Below, piece after piece: positions 4,633 through 51,488 of a stretch of 64,000 nt of DNA. The translations under genes and the position numbers were made by a program. The stretch covers positions 1,058,313 to 1,122,312 of the forward strand of contig OY762213.1 in assembly GCA_963665385.1 (NCBI GenBank), written 5' to 3'. The number at the start of each line of letters is the position of its first letter. The first letter of the stretch is position 1. This DNA comes from Dehalococcoidia bacterium. GTDB taxonomy: Bacteria > Chloroflexota > Dehalococcoidia > UBA6926. Under the pieces are notes generated by a model. The model made no database searches. It was not told the origin of the DNA and was given only the letters and a program-made list of their open reading frames with translations.

Positions 4633-4638
4633 GGCCGC

Positions 4639-5079
4639 ATGACAATCGCCCTTTCAGGTCACGACATAGCAGAGAAACTCCGCGCCGTCCTGCCGGATGC
4701 AGTCGAAGAGGAGCGCGAGGAGTGGGTCGTCGTTTCCCCTGATTCCATTGCCGAAGTCTGTCGGATCCTGCGCGACAACGATGAGACCGATTTCCGGATG
4801 CTGCGCTCGATCGATGCCGTCGACTTCATCGACCGTTTCGAGTTGCGCTACGGCCTCTTGTCGATCCGCCGAAATCAGGAGGCAACACTGAAAGTCCGCG
4901 TGTGGGGCAGGGACGAACTCAGCGTGCCATCGGTAACGCCGGTGTGGGAGGGGGCGAACCTCCAGGAACGCGAGATCTATGACCTATTTGGGATCGAATT
5001 CGAGGGCCACCCGAACATGAAGCGGATTCTGCTTTGGGAGGGGTTTCCAGGCCATCCTTTGAGGAAAGATTTCTCATAG
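4639..5079 (+). CDS. nuoC: NADH-quinone oxidoreductase subunit C (30 kDa)
   Basis: EREIYDLFGIEFEGHPNMKRILL...FPGHPLRKDF is the NuoC signature. Confidence 0.9.
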   Translation: MTIALSGHDIAEKLRAVLPDAVEEEREEWVVVSPDSIAEVCRILRDNDETDFRMLRSIDAVDFIDRFELRYGLLSIRRNQEATLKVRVWGRDELSVPSVTPVWEGANLQEREIYDLFGIEFEGHPNMKRILLWEGFPGHPLRKDFS

Positions 5080-5085
5080 GGCGGC

Positions 5086-6222: not shown

Positions 6223-7382
6223 TTGCCGACCTCACTCGTGATTTTCTGGAAAACTATCTGTCGACCGACATTGTCGACATCCTGATGCCGCTGCTGGGCT
6301 TGTTTATCGTCGTCAATATTCTGCTCGGCAGCGCGGTTATGCTGACCTACGCCGAGCGCCGCCTCGTCGCCCGAATGCAGAATCGCATCGGCCCGAACCG
6401 GGTTGGTCCGTTCGGCCTGCTGCAGGGCGTGGCCGATCTCATGAAGCTGGTGCTCAAGGAAGACCTGACGCCGCGGGCGGCAGACAGGCTTGTCTTTCTC
6501 ATCGCGCCGATCCTCTTCTTTGCACCAGCCATCGCGCTATTTGCCGTCGTTCCGTTCTTTGATGGGTGGACCGTAGCCGATCTGGACGCGGGCATTGTCT
6601 ATGTGATTGCCGTAACGTCCATATCGTCACTTGCGGCGTTTGCGGCGGGGTGGGCCTCGAACAACAAGTACTCGCTGTACGGCGCAGTGCGCGGCGTGGC
6701 GCAGCTTGTCAGCTACGAAGTGCCGCTGATCCTTGCGGTCACATCCGTGATTCTCCTTTCCGGTTCGTTGAACCTGCAGGAGATCGTTGAAGCGCAGGGC
6801 ATCCCGTTCGTGCTGGTGCAGCCTCTTGGATTCCTCATCATGTTGATTGCTGTCACCGCGGAGCTGAACCGAACGCCCTTTGACATCAACGAAGCAGAGT
6901 CGGAGATCGTGGCCGGTTTCCACACGGAGTACACAGGCACCAAGTTCGCGCTCATCTACGGCGCGGAGTATGTGGCGGCACTGGGCTGGTCGGCGGTCAT
7001 CGTCACCCTGTTCTTCGCGGGCTGGAAGCCGGACCTTGGCGGCATCATCTGGTTCGGCATCAAGACGTCGGCGATTGTATTCCTGTTCTTCTGGTTCCGT
7101 GGCACGTGGCCGCGTGTACGCATCGACCAGATGTTGGCGCTTGCGTGGAAGCTTCTGTTCCCGCTGGCGACGATAAACATTCTCGTCACGGCGGGCGAGG
7201 TGCTGGCGATGCAGGCGCTGTTCTCGCTCGAGCCGGGCGAGGCTCTGCCGGTCGCTGCGTTGGCCATCATCGCCGCGATCAACATCGGCCTGACCGTCGC
7301 GGTGCTGGCGCTGCTTGCACGAGTGCCGGGCCTTGCGAAGTTCGATCAACAGCTGGCGGCCCCGGCCGGGGCGAAGGTGTAG
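6219..7382 (+). CDS. nuoH: NADH-quinone oxidoreductase subunit H
   Basis: TYAERRLVARMQNRIGPNRVGPFGLLQ...MKLVLKEDL is the NuoH/ND1 signature. Overlaps the nuoD stop. Confidence 0.93.
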   Translation: MIADLTRDFLENYLSTDIVDILMPLLGLFIVVNILLGSAVMLTYAERRLVARMQNRIGPNRVGPFGLLQGVADLMKLVLKEDLTPRAADRLVFLIAPILFFAPAIALFAVVPFFDGWTVADLDAGIVYVIAVTSISSLAAFAAGWASNNKYSLYGAVRGVAQLVSYEVPLILAVTSVILLSGSLNLQEIVEAQGIPFVLVQPLGFLIMLIAVTAELNRTPFDINEAESEIVAGFHTEYTGTKFALIYGAEYVAALGWSAVIVTLFFAGWKPDLGGIIWFGIKTSAIVFLFFWFRGTWPRVRIDQMLALAWKLLFPLATINILVTAGEVLAMQALFSLEPGEALPVAALAIIAAINIGLTVAVLALLARVPGLAKFDQQLAAPAGAKV

Positions 7383-7392
7383 GAGGCAGGCC

Positions 7393-7899
7393 ATGGCTCT
7401 ATTTGGCACGGGAGCGATCAAGGGGCTGATGGTGACGCTCGGCTACATCCGCCGCAAGCCGTTCACCACCCAATACCCGGAGGAAAAGCTGGAGCAGTCG
7501 CCACGATTCCGCGGCAACACATTCGTCTGGTACGAGGAGCGCTGCACCGGCTGCGCTACGTGCGCCAAGGGATGCCCGCTCGGCATCATCCGCATCGTCA
7601 CGCACCCGGAGCCGCACTCACAGGTCGGCAGCGACTATCACGTCGATGTTTTCGACATCGACACAGGTCGCTGCATGTTCTGCGCCCTGTGCGTTGAGGT
7701 CTGCCCCTACGACGCGTTGCACATGGGCGGTGATTTTGAGCAGGCGTCATATGGGCGTGAAGACATGGTTATTAGCGTTGAGGATCTCAAGGCGATGCCC
7801 AAGAAGCCGCGCACGCAATTCCGACCGCAGATGGAGATGATCGGCCACACGGGCAAGGACGAACTTGAGGAGCATGAGGCGGGGCGGTGGTCACTCTAG
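7393..7899 (+). CDS. nuoI: NADH-quinone oxidoreductase subunit I (2x[4Fe-4S] ferredoxin)
   Basis: CTGCATCAKGCP and CMFCALCVEVCP cluster motifs. ATG at 7393 is preceded by AGGAGG. The longer track ORF from 7315 is an in-frame upstream extension. Confidence 0.9.
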   Translation: MALFGTGAIKGLMVTLGYIRRKPFTTQYPEEKLEQSPRFRGNTFVWYEERCTGCATCAKGCPLGIIRIVTHPEPHSQVGSDYHVDVFDIDTGRCMFCALCVEVCPYDALHMGGDFEQASYGREDMVISVEDLKAMPKKPRTQFRPQMEMIGHTGKDELEEHEAGRWSL

Positions 7900-8390
7900 C
7901 GTTCTTCTTTCTAGCCACCGCAGCGATGATCGGCGCGCTTGCCGTCGTGACTGCGCGCAATCTTTTCTACGCGGCCCTCGGCCTGCTTGTCAGCCTGGCC
8001 GCCGTGGCGGGTATCTATATCACGCTTGATGCTGATTTCCTCGCGCTGGCGCAGTTCCTCATCTATGTGGGCGGCATCGCCGTCCTGATCGTGTTCGCCG
8101 TGATGATGACGGCGCAGATAAACCGCGCGAGCAGTTCGCATCGTCTCTGGCCGTTGGGACTACTGACCGGCGCGGCGACGCTGGCCGGGCTGGCCTACAT
8201 CATGATGACGACGGAATGGCGCAGCGAGGGCAGGGGCGAGACGATTTCGCCCATGGTGGGCGACGCTGCGTCCCCCGGCGTCCATCTACCGGATTTGTTG
8301 TTCAGCACGTATCTCTTGCCGTTTGAGTTGGCAGGACTTTTGCTACTTGTGGCGACGATTGGCGCGCTCGTGATCGCGCGGGAGCGGTGA
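7887..8390 (+). CDS. nuoJ: NADH-quinone oxidoreductase subunit J
   Basis: Hydrophobic NuoJ-like sequence (FLATAAMIGALAVVTARN...FLIYVGGIAVLIVF) in the correct operon position. Confidence 0.88.
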   Translation: MVTLAFFFLATAAMIGALAVVTARNLFYAALGLLVSLAAVAGIYITLDADFLALAQFLIYVGGIAVLIVFAVMMTAQINRASSSHRLWPLGLLTGAATLAGLAYIMMTTEWRSEGRGETISPMVGDAASPGVHLPDLLFSTYLLPFELAGLLLLVATIGALVIARER

Positions 8391-8404
8391 GGCAGGGCAG
8401 GGGA

Positions 8405-8716
8405 ATGGACACTCTCGCGCTCGAACACTATCTCCTGCTTTCAGTCGGGCTGTTCGCTGTTGGGCTGGTCGGAGTGCTCGCCAAGCGGAACGTCATCGTA
8501 ATCCTCATGTCCATTGAGCTGATGCTGAACGGTGTGAACGTGGCCCTGGTAGCGTTCTCGCGCTATTCGCCGGTGGATGAGCTGGCGGGCCATATCTTTG
8601 CGATATTCATCATCACCGTGGCGGCGGCTGAGGTTGCCATCGGCTTGGCGATTCTGCTGACTCTATTTGCGCGGCGGAACACGGTGGATGCGGCAGAGAT
8701 CAACTTGTTGAAGTGA
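8405..8716 (+). CDS. nuoK: NADH-quinone oxidoreductase subunit K
   Basis: ALEHYLLLSVGLFAVGLVGVLAKRNVIVILMSIELMLNGVN is the NuoK signature. ATG 8405 has a good Shine-Dalgarno; GTG 8387 is an alternative start. Confidence 0.9.
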   Translation: MDTLALEHYLLLSVGLFAVGLVGVLAKRNVIVILMSIELMLNGVNVALVAFSRYSPVDELAGHIFAIFIITVAAAEVAIGLAILLTLFARRNTVDAAEINLLK

Positions 8717-8732
8717 CGAACTGGAAAGAGAT

Positions 8733-8927
8733 ATGTGGGTTGAATTCAAACGGGTAAAGGGACTGAAGGCCGCGGAGATGTGGAAGACCCTCTACGAGGG
8801 AGAAGGGCTGCCGACCCGCATCATGCCCGACCGCGTGGAGCAGTGGGGCGACGAATTCGCCGAGTTCAAGGTCTGTGTCCCCCGCGCCCGGGAGCACGTC
8901 GCTGAAGAAATCGAGCGGAAGGTTTAG
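8733..8927 (+). CDS. Small hydrophilic hypothetical protein (64 aa) inserted between nuoK and nuoL
   Basis: Intact ORF MWVEFKRVKGLKAAEMWKTLYEGEGLPTRIMPDRVEQWGDEFAEFKVCVPRAREHVAEEIERKV. Same strand, starts 17 nt after nuoK, normal GC. I recognise no homology; coding status unproven. Confidence 0.4.
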   Translation: MWVEFKRVKGLKAAEMWKTLYEGEGLPTRIMPDRVEQWGDEFAEFKVCVPRAREHVAEEIERKV

Positions 8928-8963
8928 CACGACCCATGCTCAGCACACAGGGGAACCTTCACC

Positions 8964-9055
8964 GCCAAACGGTGGAACTAATGCGAGAGGCCCAGCTGAA
9001 CACGCAGCGAAATCTTCACCGCAGAACACTGAAAATAATGCAAGAGGCTAAAGCT
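8964..9055 (+). repeat. Two imperfect direct repeats of about 39 bp, spaced about 53 bp apart, in the nuoK-nuoL intergenic region
   Basis: aaccttcaccgccaaacggtggaactaatgcgagaggcc versus aatcttcaccgcagaacactgaaaataatgcaagaggct, about 30/39 identical. The first copy contains a short hairpin, caccg-ccaaa-cggtg. Confidence 0.5.
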
Positions 9056-9061
9056 TAAGAG

Positions 9062-11038
9062 ATGCCGGAAGCAGCAGTCTGGTTGATCATTGCCGCGCCG
9101 CTCGCGGCGGCCGTTTTCAACGGCCTGATCATCCGTCCCCTGTTTGGGCCGGTGTCACGGATTGGATTCGATGCCACCGTCGGCGCAATCGGCATATCGT
9201 TCCTTCTTTCGCTCTGGGCGTTGTCCGTCGTCTGGACAGACCAGGAGGTCGTCCTTCCCTTACACGAGATTATCCGCGTCGATGAGTTTTCGCTTCGAAT
9301 AGGATTGCTGTTGGACGGGCTGACGGCCATCATGCTGGTTGTCGTGACGTCTGTGAGCCTCCTTGTGCAAATCTACTCGCACGGCTACATGAAGGAGGAT
9401 CAGAGCTACGTCCGGTACTACACCTTCATGGCCATGTTCACGTCGGCGATGCTGACGTTGGTCCTGGCCAACAACCTGATCCTGCTGTTTGTTGGCTGGG
9501 AGCTTGTCGGACTGTGTTCGTACCTGCTGATCGGGTTCTGGTTCACGCGACCGAGCGCGGCGGCGGCTGCCAAGAAGGCCTTTATCATCACCCGCTTCGG
9601 CGACCTCTTTTTCCTGCTCGCAATCCTCGGTATCTTCCTGCTGTGGCCCGACGATACGCCTGTCACGTTCGCCCTCAGCGACCCGAATGCCTCCATCGAT
9701 CTGCTCAGCGCGGGCGGTGCGGCGCTGACAGGGACGGGTCTGACGCTCATCTGCCTGGGCATCATGGCAGGCGCGGCGGGCAAGAGCGCGCAATTCCCGT
9801 TGCACACGTGGCTGCCGGACGCGATGGAGGGCCCCACACCGGTCAGCGCGCTCATCCACGCCGCGACGATGGTCGCCGCAGGTGTCTTCCTCGTTGCGCG
9901 GTTCCTGCCGCTGTTCGAGGAGGCGGAGACTGCGCGGACCATCGTTGCACTCATCGGCGGATTCACGGTCGTCTTTGCGGCGTCGATGGGCCTTGTGATG
10001 AACGACATCAAGCGCGTGCTCGCCTATTCGACCGTGAGCCAGCTGGGTTATATGTTCCTAGCACTTGGGTTGGGGGCGCTCGGCCCGGCATTATTCCACC
10101 TGTTCAACCACGCATTCTTCAAGGCGTTGCTGTTCCTTGGCTCCGGTTCCGTCAACCACGCCACCGGAACGTTTGACATGCGCTTGATGGGCGGGCTGCG
10201 ACGCGTCATGCCGTGGACGTACGGCGTATTCTTCATCGGCTCGCTGAGCCTTGCCGGCATCCCACCGTTCTCCGGTTTCTGGAGCAAAGACGAGATACTC
10301 GGCATTGCGTGGTCGTATGGCGGCACGCTGGGCACGATTCTCTTCGTACTCGCGGTAGTCGGCGCGTTCATGACGGCCGCCTATATCTTCCGTGCACTGT
10401 TCATGACATTCCACGGCAAGTACCGGGGCGGCGAGGCGCAGGAGGCGCACGGCACCGTGGACGCGCATGAGACACACGACGAGGGGCACGGCGCGACCCC
10501 GCACGAATCGCCGTGGGTCATGGTTATTCCGATGGCGATTCTCGCCGTGCTGGCAATCGGCTCCTGGTTCATCAATTTCCCGGTAACGCACTGGTTCACC
10601 GACCTCTTAAAGCCGCTTGGCGCGCACGTGGAAGAGATCCAGATCGTTCCCGCTGCTATTGGACTTGTGGCGGGTTTGCTTGGCATCGCAGTAGCGACGG
10701 CGCTGTACCGGGGCGGCGCGGTGAGCGCCCCGTCCATCAGCGGACCACTCGCTCCCATCACTAATCTGCTAACCCGCAAGTACTACATGGATGAGTTTTA
10801 CGAGGGCGTGATTGTGCGCTCCGTACTTTACGAGCGTCTGTGGCGGTTCCTCGCGTGGTTCGACAGCGACAAGGGCGTTGTGGACAGGGCAGTCAACACG
10901 CTGGGGCTATTTGGGCGCAACCTCGGCAAGGGTATTCGCGTCGTCGAGAACGGCCAGCTGCAGATGTCGCTCACGGTGTTGTCCATCGGCGCGGTAATCA
11001 TCGTGGCCGCATACGTCGTGTGGGGAGGCGTGGGCTAG
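9062..11038 (+). CDS. nuoL: NADH-quinone oxidoreductase subunit L
   Basis: 658-aa antiporter-like subunit (WLPDAMEGPTPVSALIHAATMVAAG) with the long C-terminal region typical of NuoL. Confidence 0.93.
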   Translation: MPEAAVWLIIAAPLAAAVFNGLIIRPLFGPVSRIGFDATVGAIGISFLLSLWALSVVWTDQEVVLPLHEIIRVDEFSLRIGLLLDGLTAIMLVVVTSVSLLVQIYSHGYMKEDQSYVRYYTFMAMFTSAMLTLVLANNLILLFVGWELVGLCSYLLIGFWFTRPSAAAAAKKAFIITRFGDLFFLLAILGIFLLWPDDTPVTFALSDPNASIDLLSAGGAALTGTGLTLICLGIMAGAAGKSAQFPLHTWLPDAMEGPTPVSALIHAATMVAAGVFLVARFLPLFEEAETARTIVALIGGFTVVFAASMGLVMNDIKRVLAYSTVSQLGYMFLALGLGALGPALFHLFNHAFFKALLFLGSGSVNHATGTFDMRLMGGLRRVMPWTYGVFFIGSLSLAGIPPFSGFWSKDEILGIAWSYGGTLGTILFVLAVVGAFMTAAYIFRALFMTFHGKYRGGEAQEAHGTVDAHETHDEGHGATPHESPWVMVIPMAILAVLAIGSWFINFPVTHWFTDLLKPLGAHVEEIQIVPAAIGLVAGLLGIAVATALYRGGAVSAPSISGPLAPITNLLTRKYYMDEFYEGVIVRSVLYERLWRFLAWFDSDKGVVDRAVNTLGLFGRNLGKGIRVVENGQLQMSLTVLSIGAVIIVAAYVVWGGVG

Positions 11039-11041
11039 GTC

Positions 11042-12523
11042 ATGCAACCCTTCGACGGCCTCATAACGCTCATCGTCTTCCTGCCGGTCGCCGGCGCGGC
11101 AGTCATTGCGGTGGCGGGGCGCGAGCAGATGCTGGTGCGGCGCATCGCGCTCGGCGCCATGATCCTCAATCTCATTCTCGCCACCTACGCCTGGCTCTCG
11201 TACAGCGCCAACGGCCCGATCATCGAACAACTTGGGCAATATGGATCAAACCCGTGGATTCCGGGCGTCAACGCTTCCTATCTGCTGACTATCGACGGCC
11301 TCTCGATGCCGCTGGTCTTCCTCACGGCCCTGCTTGGAGTCGTGGCCGTGCTTGGGTCGTGGCACGTCAAGGAGCGAGTCCGCGAGTATCACGTCTGGCT
11401 GCTGATGCTCCTGACCGGTGTGCAGGGCGTGTTCGTGGCGGGCGACCTGCTCCTCTTCTTCCTGTTCTGGGAGGTGGAGTTGGTGCCAATGTATTTCCTC
11501 ATCGCGATGTGGGGCACTGGTCACCGCGAATACTCTGCGATGAAATTCGTTCTTTACACGCTCTTCGGGAGCGCGTTCATGTTGGTGGGAGTGCTCGCCC
11601 TGCGCTTCGCGATCGGGTCGTTTGACATGGGCGCAATGACGCTTGCGGGGCAGGAGGGCACACTGCGTGCCGCGTTCCTGAGCATGGACGTCATCTTCCT
11701 GATGTTCCTGGCAGCATTCGCCATAAAGCTCCCTGTCTGGCCGTTGCATACGTGGCTGCCGGACGCGCATACGGACGCGCCGACCGCCGTCAGCGTGCTG
11801 CTTGCGGGAGTGCTGCTAAAGATGGGCGGCTACGGCCTGATCCGCATCAACGTCGGAATGTTCCCGAGCGAGATGGAACAATGGGCGCCGCTGCTGGTCA
11901 TCTTCTCCGTCGTCAGCATCCTCTATGGCGCGGCGGTGGTGTTCAGACAAACAGATCTCAAACGGCTTGTCGCGTATTCGAGCGTCAGCCACATGGGACT
12001 CGTCTTATTGGGGGTGGCCTCATTGGGCGCCGTGAGTGTCACCGGCGCGGCGTTGCAGATGTTTGCGCACGGCACAATCACAGGCTTGCTGTTCCTCGTC
12101 GTTGGGATCATCTATGAAAACACTCACACGCGACATATCCCGGACCTTGGCGGCCTCTTCTCGCGGATGCCTGTGGTTGGCGCAGTATTTGTGTTTGCGG
12201 GACTCGCGAGCCTTGGCCTGCCGCTGCTTAGCGGATTTGCGGCGGAGTTGATGGTCTTCCTCGGCAGCTTCGACGCCTACCCATGGCAGACGGCCTTTGC
12301 CGTGCTGGGCATAGTGCTGACAGCAGGCTACATCCTGTGGACGGTGGAGCGCGTGTTGCTCGGCCCGCTCAAGGAAAGGTGGCAGTCCGTCAAGGACGCA
12401 TCACCCGCCGATTTCGTGGCGATGGCGCTGCTCGTGCTGCCGATCATCATCGTCGGTGTCTATCCGGCGTTGGTGGCCGACGTATTCCGCGACGCCGTGA
12501 CGCTGCTGGTGGGCGGAGGGTAG
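11042..12523 (+). CDS. nuoM: NADH-quinone oxidoreductase subunit M
   Basis: Antiporter-like subunit (WLPDAHTDAPTAVSVLLAGVLLKMGGYG) in the NuoM position. Confidence 0.92.
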   Translation: MQPFDGLITLIVFLPVAGAAVIAVAGREQMLVRRIALGAMILNLILATYAWLSYSANGPIIEQLGQYGSNPWIPGVNASYLLTIDGLSMPLVFLTALLGVVAVLGSWHVKERVREYHVWLLMLLTGVQGVFVAGDLLLFFLFWEVELVPMYFLIAMWGTGHREYSAMKFVLYTLFGSAFMLVGVLALRFAIGSFDMGAMTLAGQEGTLRAAFLSMDVIFLMFLAAFAIKLPVWPLHTWLPDAHTDAPTAVSVLLAGVLLKMGGYGLIRINVGMFPSEMEQWAPLLVIFSVVSILYGAAVVFRQTDLKRLVAYSSVSHMGLVLLGVASLGAVSVTGAALQMFAHGTITGLLFLVVGIIYENTHTRHIPDLGGLFSRMPVVGAVFVFAGLASLGLPLLSGFAAELMVFLGSFDAYPWQTAFAVLGIVLTAGYILWTVERVLLGPLKERWQSVKDASPADFVAMALLVLPIIIVGVYPALVADVFRDAVTLLVGGG

Positions 12524-12529
12524 GCGGCG

Positions 12530-14041
12530 ATGCCAACTCAGATTGACGCCGCCTCTCTGGGCATCGACTTCGGCCATCTCGCGCCGGAGATTATTCTCAC
12601 ACTGGCTGCCATCACCGTTGTGCTGGTTGACCTCGTCGCACGAGACAAGCGAGTTCTGGCGTGGCTGAGCGCCCTTGGAGTCGCCATGGCGGGCGGCGCT
12701 GCCGTCTGGCTTTGGACGTCCGACGCGTCCGGAACAAGTTACTCCGGCATAGTCATTACCGACCTGTTTGGCACGATGTTCAAACTCATCGTGCTTGGCG
12801 GCACGCTGCTGGCCATCCTCTTCTCACCCGCGTATGTTGAGCGCCGCCTTTCGCGTTTCCACGGTGAATACTACGGCCTTCTGTTGCTGGCTACCGTCGG
12901 CATGATGCTGCTCGTCTCGATGGGCGAGTTGATCTCTATCGTCCTTGCATTGGAGATTCAGACCTTCGCGCTGGTTGCGCTGATCGCGTTGCTCAAGGAT
13001 GCGAAATCCACTGAATCCGCGCTCAAGTTCTTGCTTCTCAGTGCGGTCGCGACGGCTGTCATGCTGTACGGAATGGCCATCTTGTTTGGCCTGACCGGCA
13101 CGACGTTCATCGCGGACATGCCGGGCGTGGTGGCGGAGCGTGTGGCTGAGGGCGGCTTGGCCAACAATCTCGCGCTGATCCTTGCCGCCGTTCTGCTCAT
13201 CGTGGGTTTCGGATTCAAGATTTCCAGCGTGCCGTTCCAAATGTGGGTCCCGCCGGTGTACGAGGGTGCTCCGACACCCATCGTCGGCTACCTTTCCGTA
13301 GTGTCCAAGGCGGCCGGATTTGCCGTGCTCATGCGACTGTTCGTCGTCGTGTTGGAGCAGGCGGGGCTGGATCTGCTGGACTGGCCGTTGCTTATCGGCG
13401 TGCTGGCCATTGCCTCCATGACCATCGGCAACGTTGTGGCCATCATTCAGACGAACATCAAGCGTCTGCTCGCGTACAGCACGATAGCCCAGGCCGGATA
13501 CATCCTCATTGGAGTAGCGGTGATGGGCAACGGTGGGGCTATCGTTTACGAGCTAGCGACGAGCGGTGTCATCTTCTATCTCGCCGCCTACACGTTCTCC
13601 AATCTGGCGGCATTCGGCGCGCTAATCGCCCTCAGCCGTCCCAACGGCAACGACTCCATAGAAGAGTTGACGGGCGGCTACTCACGGTCGCCACTTGCCG
13701 CCATTGTTCTGACGGTGGCGCTGATTTCCCTTGTCGGACTGCCGCCGACGGGCCTCTTTGTCGGCAAGATCTACCTCTTCTACGGGGCAGTGCAGGGCGA
13801 TCTGTGGTGGCTGGCCCTGGCGGGCGCCCTCAACAGCTTTGTATCCGCCTACTACTACCTGCGGCCTGTGCGCCGCCTCTGGCAGTCCGGCGGGCCGACT
13901 GACGTTGTTAGCGATACGGCGCGTTCCTTCTCATTGCGGGCCTCCATGGTGGTTAGCCTCATCGGCGTAATCGTTCTGGGTATCGTTCCGTTCTGGCTCA
14001 TTTCCCGTGCCACGGAGGCCGCCGCGTCCTTCACACCTTGA
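12530..14041 (+). CDS. nuoN: NADH-quinone oxidoreductase subunit N
   Basis: Antiporter-like subunit (PFQMWVPPVYEGAPTPIVGYLSVVSKAAGF); last gene of the nuo operon. Confidence 0.9.
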   Translation: MPTQIDAASLGIDFGHLAPEIILTLAAITVVLVDLVARDKRVLAWLSALGVAMAGGAAVWLWTSDASGTSYSGIVITDLFGTMFKLIVLGGTLLAILFSPAYVERRLSRFHGEYYGLLLLATVGMMLLVSMGELISIVLALEIQTFALVALIALLKDAKSTESALKFLLLSAVATAVMLYGMAILFGLTGTTFIADMPGVVAERVAEGGLANNLALILAAVLLIVGFGFKISSVPFQMWVPPVYEGAPTPIVGYLSVVSKAAGFAVLMRLFVVVLEQAGLDLLDWPLLIGVLAIASMTIGNVVAIIQTNIKRLLAYSTIAQAGYILIGVAVMGNGGAIVYELATSGVIFYLAAYTFSNLAAFGALIALSRPNGNDSIEELTGGYSRSPLAAIVLTVALISLVGLPPTGLFVGKIYLFYGAVQGDLWWLALAGALNSFVSAYYYLRPVRRLWQSGGPTDVVSDTARSFSLRASMVVSLIGVIVLGIVPFWLISRATEAAASFTP

Positions 14042-14157: not shown

Positions 14158-15204
14158 ATGTTTGACCGTGTCCACCACGCCGGAATCGCCGTAGGCGATC
14201 TCCAGGGAGCAACGGACATCTTTGCAGACGCGCTTGGGCTTCGCGTGGATGGGATTCGCTCTCCGCGACCCGAGGGGCGAGCGCAGCGTGGGGCGGACCC
14301 CACAGACATCATTGATATTCCCATTGGTCACTCCGAGCTTGAGCTGAACGCCGCCGCCGCAGAGGGCACGGGCGTCCACCGGTTTGTGGAATCACGCGGC
14401 GGACTCGGCGCGCTCCACCATGTGTGCCTGCACACCACCAACATGGCTGATGACGTTGGACACCTGCGTGCCTCCGGCCTCCAGCAAGTAGCCGCGCCGC
14501 CGGATGTCCTTGCCGAGAACGAGCCGTGGACTGACGTCGCATTCTTCCATCCGCGGGACTGCATGGGCATCCTGCTTGAGATATGGACCACGGAAGTTCA
14601 CCGCGTCGATATGCGCTACCAGGGCGAGGGTCTATTCACTCGCATGGCGCACATTGGTGTCGTCGCGTCGGATATCGAGAAGTCCCGTCACTTCTGGACG
14701 AATGTCATTGGCTTCCGCGTCGACATGTTCAAATCGAACGTCCTCAAGGGTGGCCGGCATGTGGACTCCGACAACGTGACCGTACTGGATCTGCCAATGG
14801 GCGACTCCGGCATCACGTGCGTCCATCCCAACGACAGCGAGAGCGGCACGGCGCGCTTCCTTGAGAAGTACGGCGCGCGGGCAGGGGGCACGATGCACCA
14901 CATCGCGCTTGCCACTGCCGACGTCAAGACCGCCGCGGACGTCGTTCAGTCGCGAGGGCTTCAGCTCATAGGCCCCGCGACTGATGACAGTGCGTGGATT
15001 CACCCGAAGAGCGCGGCCGGCGTCCTGATTGAGATCGTCAAGGACGATCTGGGTCAGCCCAGGCCCCTCAGCCGCTCAGAGCGAGCTCGAGCGATCCGAC
15101 AGGGCAAGGTGGTTGGTCGGACGAACCGGGAGCTTGCAAGCGAATACGGAGTGAGTGAAGCCGAGGTTGAGGCGATTCTGAGCGCGCAAGGGCCCCAGGA
15201 CTAG
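14158..15204 (+). CDS. Tandem double-VOC (glyoxalase/bleomycin-resistance/dioxygenase-family, methylmalonyl-CoA-epimerase-like) protein with a C-terminal HTH-like tail
   Basis: Two VOC modules (MFDRVHHAGIAVGDL..., then MAHIGVVASDIEKSRHFWTNVIGFRV...). Paralogous to 15287..16198, 49319..50119 and 50144..51025. Extra C-terminal segment GRTNRELASEYGVSEAEVEAIL resembles a helix-turn-helix. Confidence 0.7.
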   Translation: MFDRVHHAGIAVGDLQGATDIFADALGLRVDGIRSPRPEGRAQRGADPTDIIDIPIGHSELELNAAAAEGTGVHRFVESRGGLGALHHVCLHTTNMADDVGHLRASGLQQVAAPPDVLAENEPWTDVAFFHPRDCMGILLEIWTTEVHRVDMRYQGEGLFTRMAHIGVVASDIEKSRHFWTNVIGFRVDMFKSNVLKGGRHVDSDNVTVLDLPMGDSGITCVHPNDSESGTARFLEKYGARAGGTMHHIALATADVKTAADVVQSRGLQLIGPATDDSAWIHPKSAAGVLIEIVKDDLGQPRPLSRSERARAIRQGKVVGRTNRELASEYGVSEAEVEAILSAQGPQD

Positions 15205-15286
15205 CGGCGGCTGACAGAGCCAAGACTGAAAACGAAGTAGAAACCATCACCGATACGGACAACAGACAGAGTAAGGAATTTTAGAA

Positions 15287-16198
15287 TTGTTTGACAGAAT
15301 TCATCATGCAGGACTTGCCATAGCCGACCTGGTTTCAGCCAAAAGCGTCTTTGCGGACGCCCTTGGCCTACGCGTCGATGAGACTCGCTCCCCGCTGCCG
15401 GACGGCAACAAGCAGCGCGGCCCGGATCCGACGGACATACTGGACATCCCCATTGGCAATGCCGAACTTGAAATGAACGCGCCTCCGTCTGACGGCACGA
15501 CGCCCGGCGGCACACACCGATTCGTTGAGCAGCGAGGCGGCGCGGGTGCGCTCCATCACGTTTGTCTCCATTCCACCAATGTGCCGGATGACATTGCCCA
15601 CCTGCGCGCGGCCGGCCTACAGCAGATTGCCGCGCCACCGGAGGTCCTTGAGTCCAACGAGCCGTGGGATTCAGTCGCTTTCTTCCACCCGCGTGACTGC
15701 ATGGGCATCTTGCTGGAGATATGGTTTACCGATGACCATCATGTCGGCGCGCGTTACCAGGGCGAGGGTATTTTCACCCGCTTGAATCACATCGGTGTTG
15801 TATCCGGTGATCTGGACAAGGCGCGGCATTTCTGGACGAACGCAATCGGAATGCGCGTTGACATGCTCAAGACCAACGTTCTCAAGGGAGGGCTGAAGGT
15901 CGAATCTGACAACGTGCGGGTTCTCAACATTCCCATGGCTAACGGTAACAGTGGCGTCGTGGCCATCACACCGGAGGACGGTACAAGCGGCACCGCGCGT
16001 TTTCTTGAGAAGTATGGCGGCCGCGCCAATGGCACGATGCATCACCTCGCATTCGCGACCAAAGACGTGAAGACCGCTGCGGACTATGTACAGGGCAATG
16101 GCCTCAAGCTCATCGGCCAGCCCAACGATGAATTCGCGTGGATTCACCCCAAGAGCGCCGCGGGGGTGCTCATTCAGATTGTGAAAGACGAGGCATAG
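15287..16198 (+). CDS. Tandem double-VOC (methylmalonyl-CoA-epimerase-like) protein, paralog of the upstream gene
   Basis: MFDRIHHAGLAIADL...ALHHVCLHSTNVPDDIAHLRAAGLQQIAAPPEV is near-identical in architecture to 14158..15204. Second VOC module: LNHIGVVSGDLDKARHFW. Confidence 0.7.
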   Translation: MFDRIHHAGLAIADLVSAKSVFADALGLRVDETRSPLPDGNKQRGPDPTDILDIPIGNAELEMNAPPSDGTTPGGTHRFVEQRGGAGALHHVCLHSTNVPDDIAHLRAAGLQQIAAPPEVLESNEPWDSVAFFHPRDCMGILLEIWFTDDHHVGARYQGEGIFTRLNHIGVVSGDLDKARHFWTNAIGMRVDMLKTNVLKGGLKVESDNVRVLNIPMANGNSGVVAITPEDGTSGTARFLEKYGGRANGTMHHLAFATKDVKTAADYVQGNGLKLIGQPNDEFAWIHPKSAAGVLIQIVKDEA

Positions 16199-16293: not shown

Positions 16294-17178
16294 ATGAAAC
16301 GAGTCGGCATCCTCTACCAGACACGAACACCGGAACCGGAAACGGTCGCGGTGGTGTTGGCCGACCAGGCGCGGGCGTTGGGTCGCGATGTCTGGCTCCA
16401 ATCGTCATGGGATGACGGCGTCGATCAGATCAATGGCGATACTGATTTAATCATCAGCGTGGGCGGTGACGGAACGCTCCTGCGGGTCGCCCGCCTTGTG
16501 GCCCCTTCGGGTATCCCCATCCTCGGAGTCAACGCCGGCAGACTCGGGTTCCTAACGGAGATCGATGCATCCGACGCGACTGGCCTGCTTCCCCGTGCAT
16601 TGAATGGGGAAGGACGGATCGAAGAGAGGACAATGCTGGCCGTCGAGCATGACGGCGCATCGTCATACGCCCTCAATGACGCGATCATCAGCCGCGGTGG
16701 CCCTGCCCGAACCGTTCAGGTCGGCATCGACGTGAATGGCGCTGAATTTCTTGCCTTCCGCGGCGACGGCGTCGTTGTCGCCACGGCAACAGGCAGCACT
16801 GCGTATAATCTCTCCGCCGGCGGCCCGGTGTTGCCGCCCACGACGGCAGAGTTGATCATCAATCCCGTCTCCGCGCACCCCGCGTCTGAAGCTCCCGTCC
16901 TTGTTGAGCCAGACGCAAAGATTGTCATTCGAATCAGGACGGATCACGGCGCGGTCCTCAGCCTCGACGGGCAAGACGATTTCGACGTCCATGACGAAGC
17001 TATAATTACCGTCCGGCGGAGCCCTTATCTCGCGCGCCTGTTGCGGTTCAGCGACGCCGGTTACTTCTACCGCAGCCTCAGTGATCTTCTCAATCGCCGC
17101 CGCCGCCACCCGGATCTGCCGGATGTGGACGGCGCCAATGATGAGGTTGCCGCGCCGCAAGGAGTCACTGTGTCATGA
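16294..17178 (+). CDS. nadK: NAD(+) kinase
   Basis: GGDGTLL and NDAIISRGG motifs, DGQDDFDVH, and the expected length. Confidence 0.88.
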   Translation: MKRVGILYQTRTPEPETVAVVLADQARALGRDVWLQSSWDDGVDQINGDTDLIISVGGDGTLLRVARLVAPSGIPILGVNAGRLGFLTEIDASDATGLLPRALNGEGRIEERTMLAVEHDGASSYALNDAIISRGGPARTVQVGIDVNGAEFLAFRGDGVVVATATGSTAYNLSAGGPVLPPTTAELIINPVSAHPASEAPVLVEPDAKIVIRIRTDHGAVLSLDGQDDFDVHDEAIITVRRSPYLARLLRFSDAGYFYRSLSDLLNRRRRHPDLPDVDGANDEVAAPQGVTVS

Positions 17179-17753
17179 CCACTCTTGGCAAAACTCTTGC
17201 CGCAAGGGAGGCCGTCCTTAGGGAGCGGGGATTCCGGGTGCGCGATGCACGCCTGAGCGATGTGCCGCGAATGGCGGAGATGATCAACAACTTTGCCAGC
17301 CAGGGCGAAATGCTGCCGCGCAGCGCGTCCGAACTCTATGAGAATATCCGGGACTTCCTCATCATCGCCGACGCAAACGATGAGGTCGCCGCCACCGCCG
17401 CGCTCCATATCCTCTGGGACGACTTGGCTGAGATCAAATCCGTGGCAGTCAGCGAGGCGCTGCACGGGCAGGGCATTGGCGCTTACCTCGTGGAGAAGTG
17501 CGTTGAAGAGGCGGCGCGGATGGAGCTACCAACCGTCTTCGTCCTGACCCACAAGCCCGGCTTCTATGAGAAGCTGCAATTCGAGCGGGCAGACGTTCTC
17601 GCATTTCCGCGCAAGGTCTGGTCGGAGTGCATCCGCTGTCCCAAGTTCTCAAACTGCAACGAGATTGCGATGAGCAGGCCGGTGGCGCGGGAGTTCACGG
17701 CTGACCTGCCGGACGATGACGATCTGTTAGACCCTATTCCGAACCGGGCCTAG
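17175..17753 (+). CDS. argA: GNAT-family amino-acid N-acetyltransferase (short-form N-acetylglutamate synthase, ArgA-like)
   Basis: LHILWDDLAEIKSVAV, QGIGAYLVEKC and the C-terminal ECIRCPKFSNC segment closely resemble the mycobacterial-type short ArgA (LHVLWSDLGEIRTVAV...EMCRSYD). Overlaps the nadK stop. Confidence 0.65.
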   Translation: MTTLGKTLAAREAVLRERGFRVRDARLSDVPRMAEMINNFASQGEMLPRSASELYENIRDFLIIADANDEVAATAALHILWDDLAEIKSVAVSEALHGQGIGAYLVEKCVEEAARMELPTVFVLTHKPGFYEKLQFERADVLAFPRKVWSECIRCPKFSNCNEIAMSRPVAREFTADLPDDDDLLDPIPNRA

Positions 17754-17846
17754 GCTTCCTTCCGTCGTTCCCGGGAAAGCATGTCACGTACTCTGATACG
17801 GGGCAGGCATTTAGCCGGTCTAACCACAGAGCAATAGGAGAACGTA

Positions 17847-18380
17847 ATGGAACGCCTTTCACGCCGCGCCGTCTATGAGGGCCGCATTGTCACCGTCTAT
17901 GAAGACCACATGCAGCTGGACGGCGGGCGGGAGCAGATGTGGACGACAATTCAGCATCCGGGCGCAGTTGTCATGGTGCCTGTCGATCCTGACGGAAATA
18001 TTCTCCTGGTCCGCCAGCCTCGCCCGTCGGCCCGTGATGTCCTGCTGGAACTCCCGGCCGGAACACGCGAGGAAGGTGAGGAGCCTGTCGTGACCGCGCG
18101 ACGCGAGCTACAGGAAGAGATCGCCCACGATCCCGGAACGATGACGCCGCTCGGCGGCTTCTACAGCGCCCCCGGGTTCTGCGATGAGTTCCTGCACCTC
18201 TTTCTCGCTACGGACTTGAGTCCTGTCGAGGGGGTTGAGCCGGATGCGGACGAGGAGATTACCGTCGTACCCACTCCTCCTAGCGCCGTGCCGGATCTTA
18301 TCCGAAGCGGCGAAATCCGTGACGCCAAGTCCATCGCCGGTCTGCTGCGTTATCTCTACATGGAGGGCGGGCTCACTTAA
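17847..18380 (+). CDS. NUDIX hydrolase (ADP-ribose pyrophosphatase-like)
   Basis: Canonical Nudix box GTREEGEEPVVTARRELQEEIA (GX5EX7REUXEEXGU). Confidence 0.85.
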   Translation: MERLSRRAVYEGRIVTVYEDHMQLDGGREQMWTTIQHPGAVVMVPVDPDGNILLVRQPRPSARDVLLELPAGTREEGEEPVVTARRELQEEIAHDPGTMTPLGGFYSAPGFCDEFLHLFLATDLSPVEGVEPDADEEITVVPTPPSAVPDLIRSGEIRDAKSIAGLLRYLYMEGGLT

Positions 18381-47579: not shown

Positions 47580-49244
47580 GTGACTAACGGTTCAAACATG
47601 TCCAAGCAGGAGTGGCTGGAGAGCGTCTACGGCCCCGCCGTCGCCCGCAATAAGGAACGGCAGGAGCGATTCGAGACCACCTCTGAAATCGAGATCGATC
47701 CGCTATACGACCCCAGCGACGTTACTGAATCTGAATTCGCCAGCAAGGTTGGCTACCCTGCCCGCTTCCCCTTCACCCGCGGCGTCCAGCCCACCATGTA
47801 TCGTGGCCGACTCTGGACCATGCGCCAATACGCCGGATTCGCCTCAGCCGAGGAGACCAACCGCCGTTACCAGTACCTTCTTGAGCAGGGCCAGACCGGC
47901 CTCTCCATGGCCTTTGACCTTCCCACGCAAACGGGTTACGACTCCGATGCCCCTCTCGCCCTCGGTGAGGTCGGTAAGGTCGGCGTACCAGTCGCGCACG
48001 TTGAGGATATGGCTATCGTCTTTGACGGCATCGACCTCGCCAAGGTCTCAACGTCCATGACCATCAACGCCACCGCGTCGATCCTTCTCGCCTATTACAT
48101 CGCCGTGGCCCGCCGTGAGGGCGTCCCCACCAAGGAACTCCGCGGCACCGTCCAGAATGACATCCTCAAGGAGTACATCGCGCGAGGCACCTACATATAT
48201 CCCCCTGCCCCGTCCATGCGTCTCATCACGGACCTCTTTGAGTACTGCGCCACTGAGACCCCCGCGTGGAACACCATTTCCATCAGCGGCTACCACATGC
48301 GCGAGGCCGGCAGCACAGCTGCCCAGGAGATCGCGTTCACTATTGCGGACGCCATAGCATATGTTGATGCTGCCATCGCGGCCGGGCTCAAGGTAGACGA
48401 CTTCGGTCCGCAGCTCTCCTTCTTCTTTGTCGCCCAATCCAACCTCCTTGAAGAGGTCGCCAAGTACCGCGCCGCGCGACGCCTGTGGGCGAAGATCATG
48501 GTCGAGCGGTTCGGATCAGAGAACCCTCGCTCCCAGATGCTCCGCTTCCACACACAGACCGCCGGTGTCACACTCACCGCGCAGCAGCCGGATAACAACG
48601 TCGTCCGCTCCACCCTTCAGGCACTCGCCGCCGTTCTCGGCGGAACACAGTCCCTGCACGTCAACTCCAAGGATGAGGCCCTTGCCCTGCCCTCGGAGGA
48701 CGCCGTCACGCTCTCGCTCCGCACCCAGCAGGTTCTCGCGTACGAGTCCGGCGTCACGGACACTGTCGACCCGCTCGCCGGCTCCTACTTCGTAGAGGCC
48801 ATGACGGACAAGTTGGAAGAAGAGGCGCGCGCCTACATCGAGCGCATCGACAAGATGGGCGGCGCAGTCCGGGCCATTGAGAACGGATTCCCGCAGCAGG
48901 AGATCGGCGACGCCTCATACAAGTACCAGACGCAGGTTGAGAGCCGAGAGCGCACCGTCGTCGGCGTCAACTCCTTCACATCCGGCGACGAAACACCCAT
49001 GGAGATTCTCCGCATCAACCCCGAGGAAACGAAGCGCCAGGTTGACCGCCTTGAGCGCGTCCGCCGTGAGCGAGACGGCCACAAGGCGCAGTCAACTCTT
49101 GAGCACCTTGAAGCCGTCGCAAAGAGTTCAGACAACACCATGCCCGCCATCATCGACTGCGTGGAAGCCGGAGCCACCACCGGCGAGATCTGTGACGTGC
49201 TCCGCGGCGTATTCGGCATGCACAAGGAGCTCCTGGTCGTCTAA
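47580..49244 (+). CDS. Methylmalonyl-CoA mutase catalytic (N-terminal TIM-barrel) subunit; no fused B12 domain
   Basis: [55 protein letters not shown] is the MCM substrate-domain signature. It ends before the B12-binding domain, which is encoded at 51072..51488. Confidence 0.9.
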
Positions 49245-49318: not shown

Positions 49319-50119
49319 ATGTTTAAGAGAATCGACCATATCGGCGTCGTCGTCCGCGACATCAAAGAGGCAACGGACGCCTACGAAAGGCTATTTGGCC
49401 TGAAAGTCGCCGCCCAGGAGACCATTGAGGAACGCGGGCTCATCGCCGCCCTCGTGCCCACGTCAAACGTGCGCTTTGAGATTATGCAGCCCATCAACCC
49501 GGAGAGCGCCGTCGGACGGTTTATCGAGCGCCGTGGTGAGGGCATCCAGCACATCTGCTTTGAGGTCGAGGACATCCGCGCCACCATCGCGACACTCAAG
49601 GAGCGCGAAGTGCAACTCATCCAGGGCGAGCCGGAAGGCGGATTCGTCGGTGAGGTCGAGTTCATCCACCCCCGCGCCGCCAACGGCGTCCTTACGGAGA
49701 TCGCGCAGGTCACCCGCCACACCCCAACCGAGCATGATCTTCGCGTCCATCACGTTACTATCGCCGCCACGGACCGCGACGCCGCCGTCGAGAATTGGTC
49801 AAAGAGCTTTGACCTCAAGCTGAACCGAATGTCGGAACGAGAGAGTGCCGGAATCATCGCCGGCTGGCTTGACGCGGGTGACGCAGAGGTTGAATTCGCT
49901 CAGCAGACCTCAGACGAAGGCCCGCTTGCCAGGTTCATTGAGGAGCGAGGCGCCGGCGTCTTTGGCATCGTCCTGGAGACAGATGACGCGGAGGGCCTGA
50001 CCGAACACGTCAGAAGCCAGGGCTTGCGCGTGATAGAAGACCCCGAGGGCGACAACGTCATCCGCGTCGTCCATCCCCAGGACTTCTTCGGCACCCTCAT
50101 CATGATCAACCAACGCTGA
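49319..50119 (+). CDS. Methylmalonyl-CoA epimerase-like protein with duplicated VOC domain
   Basis: N-terminal domain MFKRIDHIGVVVRDI...GIQHICFEVEDI is a full MCE-like VOC. A second complete VOC domain follows (LRVHHVTIAATD...). Confidence 0.75.
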   Translation: MFKRIDHIGVVVRDIKEATDAYERLFGLKVAAQETIEERGLIAALVPTSNVRFEIMQPINPESAVGRFIERRGEGIQHICFEVEDIRATIATLKEREVQLIQGEPEGGFVGEVEFIHPRAANGVLTEIAQVTRHTPTEHDLRVHHVTIAATDRDAAVENWSKSFDLKLNRMSERESAGIIAGWLDAGDAEVEFAQQTSDEGPLARFIEERGAGVFGIVLETDDAEGLTEHVRSQGLRVIEDPEGDNVIRVVHPQDFFGTLIMINQR

Positions 50120-50143: not shown

Positions 50144-51025
50144 ATGACAGACCAGCAAGATCTTCTGCTACAGCGATTTGACCAGGTAGGCCTCCTTGTC
50201 CGGGACATCGATGAAGCCGCTCAGAAAGTGGAGGATGTCCTCGGACTGAGCGCCACCGTCAAACGTGACGCCTACGACGAGGGCTATCGCGCCGCAATCA
50301 TCCCGTTGCGCGTCGGCCGCCTGATTCTGCTCCAACCCACAACCGACGACAGCCCCTTGGCCAAACAGCTTGAGGAACGCGGCGAGGGCATGCACCACGT
50401 CAGCTTCCACGTTGATGACATCGAGCAGGCTACAGAGGAGATCCAGAGCCGTGGCGGAGAGTTCATCGTCCATAGCCCCCAACAGGGCATCACGGGCAAG
50501 AACACCATCATCAGCCCTGCCAGCACCGGCGGCGTCCCCGTGGAGATCAAGGAAACTACCCTCTTCACACCCGGCACGTCGCGGGACATCGGCCTCCACC
50601 ACGTCACCATCCGCACCTATGACGTGGGCACGGCCTCGGCGACATGGCAGCATCTCTTCCGGATGCCCCTCAAGCGGCGTGCCGTCTCCGAGGGCTTCGG
50701 CATGGACACCGCGTGGCTCGACGCCGGCGACGCCGAAGTCGAATTCGCCCAGGACCTCAATGAGAACGGCCCCGTCTCCCGCGCCCTCAAGCTCATGGGT
50801 GAGGGCCTCCATGCCGTCGTGCTTGAATCTGACGACCCCGAGGCCGTCGAGGAGCGCGTTCGCGCTGCCGGCGTCCGCATGATTGTGGACGACGGCGAGC
50901 CAACCAACGTTCTCCGCGCCGTCCATCCCCTTGATTTTCTCGGTACTCTGGTATTGATAGCGCAGCGTGACGCGGCCCATGCGGGGATGAACCGCACGCA
51001 GCCCGCGGACGACACGGCGCACTAA
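50144..51025 (+). CDS. Second tandem double-VOC (MCE-like) paralog
   Basis: FDQVGLLVRDIDEA...GMHHVSFHVDDI, then LHHVTIRTYDV...; same architecture as 49319..50119. Confidence 0.7.
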   Translation: MTDQQDLLLQRFDQVGLLVRDIDEAAQKVEDVLGLSATVKRDAYDEGYRAAIIPLRVGRLILLQPTTDDSPLAKQLEERGEGMHHVSFHVDDIEQATEEIQSRGGEFIVHSPQQGITGKNTIISPASTGGVPVEIKETTLFTPGTSRDIGLHHVTIRTYDVGTASATWQHLFRMPLKRRAVSEGFGMDTAWLDAGDAEVEFAQDLNENGPVSRALKLMGEGLHAVVLESDDPEAVEERVRAAGVRMIVDDGEPTNVLRAVHPLDFLGTLVLIAQRDAAHAGMNRTQPADDTAH

Positions 51026-51071: not shown

Positions 51072-51488
51072 ATGACAACAGCAACAGCCCCAGCCCGAGT
51101 CCTGATCGCCAAGCCCGGCCTTGACGGACACGATCGCGGCGCAAAGGTCGTCGCCCGCGCCCTGCGTGACGCCGGCTTTGAAGTCATCTACACCGGCATC
51201 CGCCAAACCCCTGAGATGATTGTGCAGGCCGCCGTGCAGGAGGACGTGGACGCCATCGGCCTTAGCATCCTCTCCGGCGCGCACCTTGATCTCCTCCCTG
51301 CCATCGTCAACGGACTGCGCGAGAACGGCCTTGATATCCCCGTCTTCTCCGGCGGCATCATTCCCAAGGAAGACTACGAAGCCCTAAAGGGAATGGGCAT
51401 CACGGCCATCTTCGGCCCGGGAACCAGCCTTAAGGACATCGTCGACTTCACCCGTGAAGTCACGGGCACACCCTCCCCCGAAGACTAA
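51072..51488 (+). CDS. Methylmalonyl-CoA mutase cobalamin (B12)-binding small subunit
   Basis: [35 protein letters not shown]...[12 protein letters not shown] is the B12-binding (DxHxxG) domain. Confidence 0.9.

Follow-up and report, generated by a model that had tools for sequence, protein, structure and literature searches.

Two tandem pairs of fused two-barrel methylmalonyl-CoA epimerase-like VOC proteins in a Dehalococcoidia genome

Why should a single stretch of 64 kb encode four double-length relatives of methylmalonyl-CoA epimerase (MCE), and are all of them epimerases? We addressed this question in a stretch of 64,000 nucleotides (nt), hereafter the window, from a Dehalococcoidia bacterium (GenBank assembly GCA_963665385.1, contig OY762213.1, positions 1,058,313 to 1,122,312 of the forward strand). 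A first-pass annotation of this DNA had recognised four paralogous genes of the vicinal oxygen chelate (VOC) superfamily, two behind the nuo operon and two within a split mutase locus, and had proposed a lineage-specific expansion of one enzyme family. The paralogs are indeed diverged, but they form two unrelated tandem pairs rather than one expansion. The reading that we favour, and consider probable, is that these pairs of fused two-barrel MCE-like proteins are independent, that V3 in the mutase locus is an epimerase with V4 as its partner, and that V1 and V2 beside nuo belong to a separate subfamily. The genes and their domains, with lengths in amino acids (aa) and N- and C-terminal halves abbreviated as V1N, V1C and so on, are as follows.

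14158..15204, + strand: V1, a 348-aa fused two-domain MCE-like VOC protein.
14158-14628, + strand: V1 N-domain (aa 1-157), ligands H7/E62/H88/E141.
14629-15051, + strand: V1 C-domain (aa 158-298), ligands H165/T220/H248/E292.
15052..15204, + strand: V1 C-terminal extension of ~50 aa (aa 299-348), with three predicted short helices (306-318, 323-330 and 334-342).
15287..16198, + strand: V2, a 303-aa paralog of V1 with a TTG start; N ligands HEHE, C ligands HVHQ.
49319..50119, + strand: V3, a 266-aa fused MCE.
49319-49726, + strand: V3 N-domain (aa 1-136), HEHE, ligands H7/E54/H78/E127.
Remainder of V3 (aa 137-266), + strand: V3 C-domain, a degenerate pseudo-domain, HEGM.
50144..51025, + strand: V4, a 293-aa tandem paralog of V3; N ligands Q/I/H/E, C ligands H/E/A/L.

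The coordinates of these four open reading frames (ORFs) in the first-pass annotation proved exact. Each ORF has a Shine-Dalgarno-like motif 5' of it, and the codon-position GC of V1-V4 follows the pattern usual for genes of this window. The proteins are double-length as had been claimed (266-348 aa, against 134-161 aa for solved MCEs), and each contains two stretches that match Pfam Glyoxalase/Glyoxalase_4 and TIGR03081, the NCBIfam equivalog model for MCE (cut-off 114.95 bits). AlphaFold2 models built on ortholog alignments contain two consecutive VOC barrels in both V1 (pLDDT 86.4, pTM 0.80) and V4 (pLDDT 88.5, pTM 0.87), with the four b-a-b-b-b modules per chain that mark VOC proteins; the final ~14 aa of V4 are predicted to be disordered. 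In Foldseek searches, both whole chains superposed best, with sequence order kept, on hydroxymandelate synthase and HPPD (TMq 0.60-0.62 for V1 and 0.71-0.76 for V4). The earlier description of these proteins as made of two complete VOC domains therefore holds for the fold, but the metal sites are incomplete in five of the eight halves.

V1 and V2 are 69% identical as proteins and 71% as DNA, V3 and V4 are 39% identical as proteins, and between the pairs protein identity falls to 20-26% with no detectable DNA similarity. These values bear on a reservation attached to the first-pass annotation, that single-domain genes might have been misread as double or that the paralogs might be assembly duplications. 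We find such an artefact hardly credible, as the ORFs are continuous with no internal stops, same-length orthologs of V1-V4 occur in dozens of independent assemblies, DNA identity between paralogs does not exceed 71%, and the AlphaFold2 two-barrel models are confident. Exact-sequence look-ups for V3 and V2 (P0130 is identical to V2) found neither on record. In a scan of genomes, the window was 100% identical to part of contig CBDBLR010000003.1 from a Dehalococcoidia metagenome-assembled genome. Source names on homologs include SAR202 cluster bacterium, and close relatives come from marine metagenomes or carry names resembling sponge or coral bins (APA_bin_32, SB0661/SB0666, Plut); the host is probably a sponge-associated, SAR202-like member of the Dehalococcoidia.

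To read the metal sites, we aligned the eight halves to human MCEE (3RMU), the B. halodurans protein 3OA4 and S. coelicolor MCE (6WF6), and compared the four VOC ligand columns, which we take to be those of P. shermanii MCE His12/Gln65/His91/Glu141. An MCE site has His / Glu (or Gln) / His / Glu on strands b1, b4, b5 and b8, and in the described mechanism the substrate carboxylate is bound to the metal while two glutamates act as bases (PMC8142540). The ligands found and the TIGR03081 score of each half scored singly were:

V1N: HEHE, 64.8 bits.
V1C: HTHE, 66.7 bits.
V2N: HEHE, 55.7 bits.
V2C: HVHQ, 60.7 bits.
V3N: HEHE, 121.9 bits.
V3C: HEGM, 58.8 bits.
V4N: QIHE, 92.0 bits.
V4C: HEAL, 48.4 bits.

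A complete H/E/H/E set is thus conserved only in V1N, V2N and V3N; V1C, V2C, V3C and both halves of V4 depart from it, and V4 has no complete site at all. Among the C-halves, V1C is the only one with His/x/His/Glu. TIGR03081 is the top NCBIfam family for all eight halves, but V3N alone passes its cut-off and the other seven score between 48 and 92 bits. The best PDB matches of V3N are MCE-family chains. Scored as a whole protein, V1 reaches 125.7 bits, above the cut-off solely through the sum of two sub-threshold halves, and V4 passes in the same way. Doubled domains are in this sense a general annotation pitfall, since halves that each fail an equivalog cut-off can add up past it. Other family models fitted poorly: glyoxalase I (TIGR00068) gave partial matches of 16-30 bits against a cut-off of 120, and HPPD (TIGR01263) gave 15-64 bits against 277.

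These data bear on the proposal that all four proteins are active epimerases with two working sites each, so that together they would act on a wider set of 2-substituted acyl-CoAs (methylmalonyl-, ethylmalonyl- and others). The shared top family is what this proposal would predict, published descriptions credit SAR202-type genomes with the breakdown of methylated and odd-chain fatty acids via propionyl-CoA, and in 8 of 13 loci a standalone V2-like copy has a gene of family-III CoA-transferase type no more than about 5 kb away, although such proximity means little in a lineage rich in CoA-transferase paralogs. We nevertheless judge it unlikely, because seven of the eight halves lie under 114.95 bits, V4 has no complete ligand set, V3C has lost two ligands, V1C and V2C lack the carboxylate at the second ligand position (L2), and V3C evolves nearly twice as fast as V3N. 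The suggestion in the first-pass annotation of epimerases for more than one acyl-CoA is accordingly improbable for V4 and unproven for V1 and V2.

We next consider the genomic setting of V3 and V4, which are flanked by two mutase genes:

47580..49244, + strand: large (catalytic) subunit of a split-type methylmalonyl-CoA mutase (MCM), 554 aa, with the motifs RQYAGF, MAFD and IARGTY.
51072..51488, + strand: B12-binding small subunit of methylmalonyl-CoA mutase, 138 aa.

V3 and V4 sit between these two genes, as had been reported from the first reading, and so have the genomic association expected of an MCE. The identity of the mutase needed care, as the top PDB match of its large subunit is the 2-hydroxyisobutyryl-CoA mutase HcmA (4R3U), at 568 bits versus 479 for human MCM. 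In MCM, the residues for the substrate carboxylate are Tyr89 and Arg207 in P. shermanii numbering, and there is no Asp at the position of HcmA Asp117. At these positions the window protein reads RQ-Y-AGF, M-A-FD and IA-R-GTY, in agreement with human and M. tuberculosis MCM, where HcmA has RQIAGF, TDFD and MAQKEY. Because Tyr, Ala and Arg stand where HcmA has Ile, Asp and Gln, we assign the window enzyme by its specificity residues to the methylmalonyl-CoA mutases and reject the 2-hydroxyisobutyryl-CoA mutase candidate. A naive best-hit annotation would mislabel the large subunit at 47580-49244 as HcmA-type.

In this setting, V3 and V4 would serve the propionyl-CoA/methylmalonyl-CoA pathway, in which V3, as an active (2R/2S)-methylmalonyl-CoA epimerase, would supply substrate to the split, B12-dependent mutase encoded on either side. 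The reaction would take place in the N-barrel, where a divalent metal held by His/Glu/His/Glu would bind the substrate carboxylate while two bases exchange the alpha-proton. The C-barrel may then be a non-catalytic copy that stands in for the second subunit of the canonical homodimer, which would make V3 a built-in pseudo-dimer.

We compared this locus with homologous loci from other genomes and metagenomes, designated by L-numbers (L001, L062 and so on). In the majority of 80 metagenome loci with a V3 relative, mce is a single gene of ~130 aa, most commonly in the order mutase large subunit (mutL)-mce-mutase small subunit (mutS), which bears out the earlier statement that a single mce between the subunit genes is the usual arrangement. 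Among loci with enough flanking sequence, the single mce is usually a neighbour of mutL and/or mutS, and in some of them an acyl-CoA dehydrogenase gene intervenes. In L058, the 381-aa ORF (3846-4991) that separates the gene for the mutase large subunit from a single-domain mce reads by our judgement of its sequence as such a dehydrogenase, and gaps of similar size (~1.2 kb) occur at that place in L061, L063, L065, L076, L079, L080, L082, L088, L090 and L101. The first-pass annotation had remarked on the lack of a MeaB GTPase gene in the mutase cluster, and a tblastn search with MeaB-MCE fusion proteins found no MeaB/ArgK-like segment in the 64-kb window. Its absence is unremarkable, however, because just 3 of about 80 comparable loci have meaB as a neighbour. 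The fusion proteins themselves (P0095, P0100, P0103, P0106, P0115 and P0116), from other metagenomic organisms, join an N-terminal MeaB/ArgK GTPase to a C-terminal single-domain MCE in ~450 aa, and represent a different way to link components of the methylmalonyl pathway physically.

Other loci depart from the single-gene arrangement by degrees. In L062 (5001-5832), an intact mce of 132 aa and then a degenerate mce-like gene follow mutL as separate ORFs, ahead of mutS; the second of them has other residues at both His ligand positions (F/E/R/E, read from the translation), and the arrangement resembles the V3 pseudo-dimer in unfused form. L002 carries a single fused, double-length gene, and a fused V3 followed directly by V4 is found in the window, L001, L049, L050 and L129-L132 (in L129-L132 the gene calls for V3 and V4 have coordinate 5001 in common). 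V4 lies immediately 3' of V3 in all eight of the loci examined and was never seen alone.

Conservation within the two families runs in opposite directions. V3 proteins are more alike in their N-halves (mean pairwise identity 0.70) than in their C-halves (0.40), whereas V4 proteins are less alike in their N-halves (0.51) than in their C-halves (0.68). The N-halves of essentially all V3 orthologs carry HEHE ligands. The V4 N-site is HEHE in 12 distant orthologs, HIHE in nine and Q[IL]HE in the window and two orthologs, with YAHA and HQDS as independent patterns elsewhere; the HEAL pattern of its C-half is invariant (28/28). Judged from these alignments, the N-site of V4 decays towards the lineage of the window. 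Because the N-site ligands decay repeatedly while the C-half stays conserved, V4 would most likely not be a second epimerase but a non-canonical or non-catalytic partner of V3, probably either a pseudoenzyme or a copy that has been neo-functionalised.

Profile-profile comparisons with hhalign place these events in order. V3C and V4C are each other's closest relatives (score 215) and have derived motifs in common, and therefore the fusion predates the V3/V4 duplication; V4 would have arisen by tandem duplication of an already fused gene. V3N and V4N score 278-304 against single-domain MCE, with V3N at 304. V1N and V1C score 146-156 with each other, V1C scores 60 with V3C, and V1N and V1C score 45-64 with V3C and V4C. 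These values suggest that the domain doubling occurred independently in the V1/V2 and V3/V4 lineages.

We turn now to V1 and V2, whose neighbours are:

3587-14041, + strand: an 11-subunit nuo operon, nuoABCDHIJKLMN, without nuoEFG.
12530..14041, + strand: nuoN, the last gene of the operon, upstream of V1.
16294..18380, + strand: genes for NAD kinase, a GNAT acetyltransferase and a NUDIX hydrolase, conserved downstream neighbours of V1/V2.

V1 follows the operon directly, as first described, with a gap of 116 bp from nuoN. Within the operon nuoD and nuoH overlap, and the electron-input module (nuoE/F/G) is not encoded there. Of 39 species-level loci, 24 have the order nuoM-nuoN-V1-V2-NAD kinase, in most cases with the GNAT and NUDIX genes next, and this order is found in Tara marine contigs too. 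In three more of the 39, nuoN is followed by a single V1-like gene, and 12 carry one V2-like copy elsewhere. The place between nuoN and NAD kinase is kept down to about 47% NuoN identity, and V1 and V2 are never beside a mutase gene. The nuoN-V1 junction is not absolutely fixed, since an insertion of ~2.6 kb (L017, 3362-6001) parts the two genes in one species genome. We also noted a 64-aa ORF between nuoK and nuoL (window 8733-8927, + strand), called as a gene without a Pfam family in L003 (646-840) as well; the Tara loci L004-L007 open on the truncated end of a 64-residue product directly 5' of nuoL. The ORF may encode a small protein associated with complex I that annotation has missed.

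V1 and V2 form a narrow family, with eight representatives at E<=1e-30 and 38 at E<=1e-10 among 1.84 billion. Comparison with a 95%-identical ortholog gave 115 synonymous and 10 non-synonymous codon differences, and the pair is under strong purifying selection. Across 42 family members, the four N-site ligands (H7, E62, H88 and E141) and the C-half residues H165 and H248 are invariant, while in the C-half the L2 position varies (V/E/T) and the fourth ligand position (L4) is Glu in V1 and Gln in most V2 proteins. V1 and V2 would on this basis be a separate, constrained subfamily, probably doubled on its own, with an invariant four-ligand site in the N-barrel and a C-barrel that combines two His with Glu (V1) or Gln (V2). 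With low confidence, we read these residues as pointing to metal-dependent proton-transfer chemistry, as an epimerase or isomerase, at the N-site on a carboxylate or thioester substrate. In 8 of 13 loci with standalone V2-like genes, a homologous gene of ~430 aa lies within about 5 kb (L008 11232-12912; L039-L046); the L008 copy, the sole one checked, is a family-III CoA-transferase (PF02515). This proximity is a weak hint of acyl-CoA chemistry and could be due to chance in a paralog-rich lineage.

The features of V1C also invite a different view, in which V1 and V2 carry out other VOC chemistry, of the dioxygenase type at the His/His/Glu of V1C or as a glyoxalase-like isomerase, tied to the respiratory chain or to NAD(P) metabolism. 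V1C keeps His/x/His/Glu, at what we take to be the ligand positions of extradiol dioxygenases and HPPD, the whole V1 chain is closest in fold to hydroxymandelate synthase and HPPD, and there are weak partial matches to models of HPPD, HpaD and catechol dioxygenase. The lasting place between nuoN and NAD kinase, away from any mutase, would also fit. We consider this unlikely, though still a serious alternative, as dioxygenase-family scores reach only 15-27 bits against cut-offs of 277-321 and profile searches of the PDB with V1 and V2 returned only MCE-family chains for both halves. Moreover, V2C has Gln at the carboxylate position, 4 of 14 V1 orthologs have a full HEHE in the C-half, the invariant N-site is of the MCE/glyoxalase type, and V2-like copies also occur away from nuo.

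A bolder version of the respiratory link would make V1/V2 a conserved accessory or partner of the NuoEFG-less 11-subunit complex I, handling for example a quinone- or NAD-related small molecule, rather than a metabolic epimerase. Such a role, if true, would explain their fixed place across diverged Dehalococcoidia, but we hold it to be very improbable. A likelier, if less striking, possibility is that V4 is a dedicated pseudoenzyme subunit that joins V3 in an obligate epimerase complex together with the split mutase.

Several points weigh against our favoured reading of V3 as an epimerase, V4 as its partner and V1/V2 as a separate subfamily. Ligand assignment in every half comes from sequence alignment only. 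The second catalytic Glu of actinobacterial MCE is not conserved in V3N, but human MCEE and 3OA4 lack that residue too, which makes the difference uninformative. The surviving ligands of the window V4 sit in modules 2 and 3, and a 2+3 pairing of the glyoxalase-I type could build one full site; the AlphaFold2 model argues against such a pairing without settling the matter, since it superposes in order on hydroxymandelate synthase/HPPD (TMq 0.76, root-mean-square deviation 3.7 Å, 322 columns). V4 is also an intact ORF down to 40% identity with invariant His and Glu in its C-half, and may have a chemistry of its own. The apparent independence of the two doublings could be a long-branch artefact of the degenerate V3C and V4C halves, and V1/V2 may have stayed beside nuo because these genomes rearrange slowly, not because of a functional tie.

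The C-terminal extension of V1 had been described as an HTH-like tail, and we asked what this ~50-aa segment is. Its pattern, LS.SER.RAI.QGK.VGRTN.ELASEYGVSEAEV, is HTH-like, and it is present in 16 species-level genomes. Over 45 codons we counted 18 synonymous and eight non-synonymous differences, and divergence climbs sharply just beyond the V1 stop codon, a pattern indicating that the tail is translated and under constraint. Matches to known HTH families are sub-threshold: 15.7 bits for HTH_23 (E 0.014, Pfam gathering 24.6), 12.7 bits for GerE (E 0.1, Pfam gathering 23.5) and, in a profile search of the PDB, E 0.069 for the best match, the LuxR-type HTH of RhlR. The third helix, SEAEVEAIL, is acidic with no basic residue. 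The earlier observation was thus sound as to a real and constrained tail, and "HTH-like" is fair as a description; from its sequence, DNA binding is doubtful.

If the tail were nonetheless a functional DNA-binding HTH, V1 could be a one-component regulator with a metabolite-sensing VOC domain. Its translation and constraint in 16 species, the three helices in the AlphaFold2 model, and the alignment of its pattern to the RhlR HTH and weakly to HTH_23 and GerE are compatible with this role. We regard it as improbable, given that all matches are sub-threshold (E 0.014-0.1, 12.7-15.9 bits against cut-offs of about 24), that the would-be recognition helix has no basic residues and the fourth GerE helix is missing, and that orthologs at 83-89% identity (L025-L028 and L036) lack the tail although their genomic context is otherwise alike.

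Promoter and terminator scans around both the V1/V2 and V3/V4 loci gave nothing above shuffled expectation. With no such signal above chance around V1/V2, co-transcription with their neighbours is possible only. Rfam and tRNA scans of the whole window returned no matches, and therefore no B12 riboswitch lies ahead of the mutase. In a region between an M50 peptidase gene and ispG, we noticed a 335-aa ORF (45202-46209, + strand) with a third-position GC (GC3) of 0.45, against about 0.7-0.8 in its neighbours. Its C-terminal region matches the TIR-type defence effector model PADLOC PDLC00733 (E 8.8e-8), it has a weak match to Pfam Nuc_deoxyrib_tr, and it is probably a horizontally acquired defence-related gene.

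Automated labels for V1-V4 read "methylmalonyl-CoA epimerase" or "VOC family protein". As summed sub-threshold domains pass the equivalog cut-off, metabolic reconstructions of SAR202/Dehalococcoidia would over-count epimerases. The V3/V4 series runs from a single gene through tandem genes and a fused pseudo-dimer to a duplicated fused gene with decaying sites, and offers a natural example of a homodimeric enzyme becoming an asymmetric single chain and then gaining a probable pseudoenzyme partner. The V1/V2 subfamily, small, constrained, clade-restricted and fixed beside complex I genes, presents a defined biochemical target in an abundant uncultured marine and sponge-associated lineage. The novelty is modest: an MCE fused into a pseudo-dimer and accompanied by a tandem paralog in decay, together with a clade-restricted MCE-like subfamily, is new, but the underlying themes are known, and current understanding of VOC enzymes or of the methylmalonyl pathway is not overturned.

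Domain duplication, fusion and vestigial barrels are classic themes of the VOC superfamily, as in the two-barrel dioxygenases. The literature that we searched holds no mention of a fused or pseudo-dimeric MCE, and the SAR202 papers only list MCE as present. By sequence, each of the eight halves fits best in the known MCE family (EC 5.1.99.1; TIGR03081; PDB 1JC5, 3RMU, 6WF6 and 3OA4), with which V3N shares the four ligands, the equivalog score and the place between the MCM subunit genes. The canonical enzyme, however, is a single-barrel homodimer of ~130-150 aa, whereas V1-V4 have two barrels in one chain, the second barrel (both in V4) has lost metal ligands, and the halves of V1 and V2 lie far under the equivalog cut-off and are not mutase-linked. 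HPPD and hydroxymandelate synthase (PDB 2R5V, 7YVV and 1T47) resemble the window proteins in having two barrels per chain, one vestigial and one catalytic (TMq 0.60-0.76), but sequence identity is 11-17%, and the catalytic barrel of HPPD is C-terminal with a His/His/Glu triad, where V3 has its intact site N-terminal with four ligands. The V1 tail follows the LuxR/GerE pattern LS.RE.E.L...G.T..EIA..LG(I/V)SE..V of the RhlR C-terminal domain (PDB 7R3G) but stops after the third helix, without the fourth helix of GerE. A further parallel to V3 is L062, which likewise places between mutL and mutS an intact MCE followed by a copy without the His ligands; there the two are separate genes of ~132-140 aa rather than one fused ORF, in what looks like either an evolutionary intermediate or a parallel solution.

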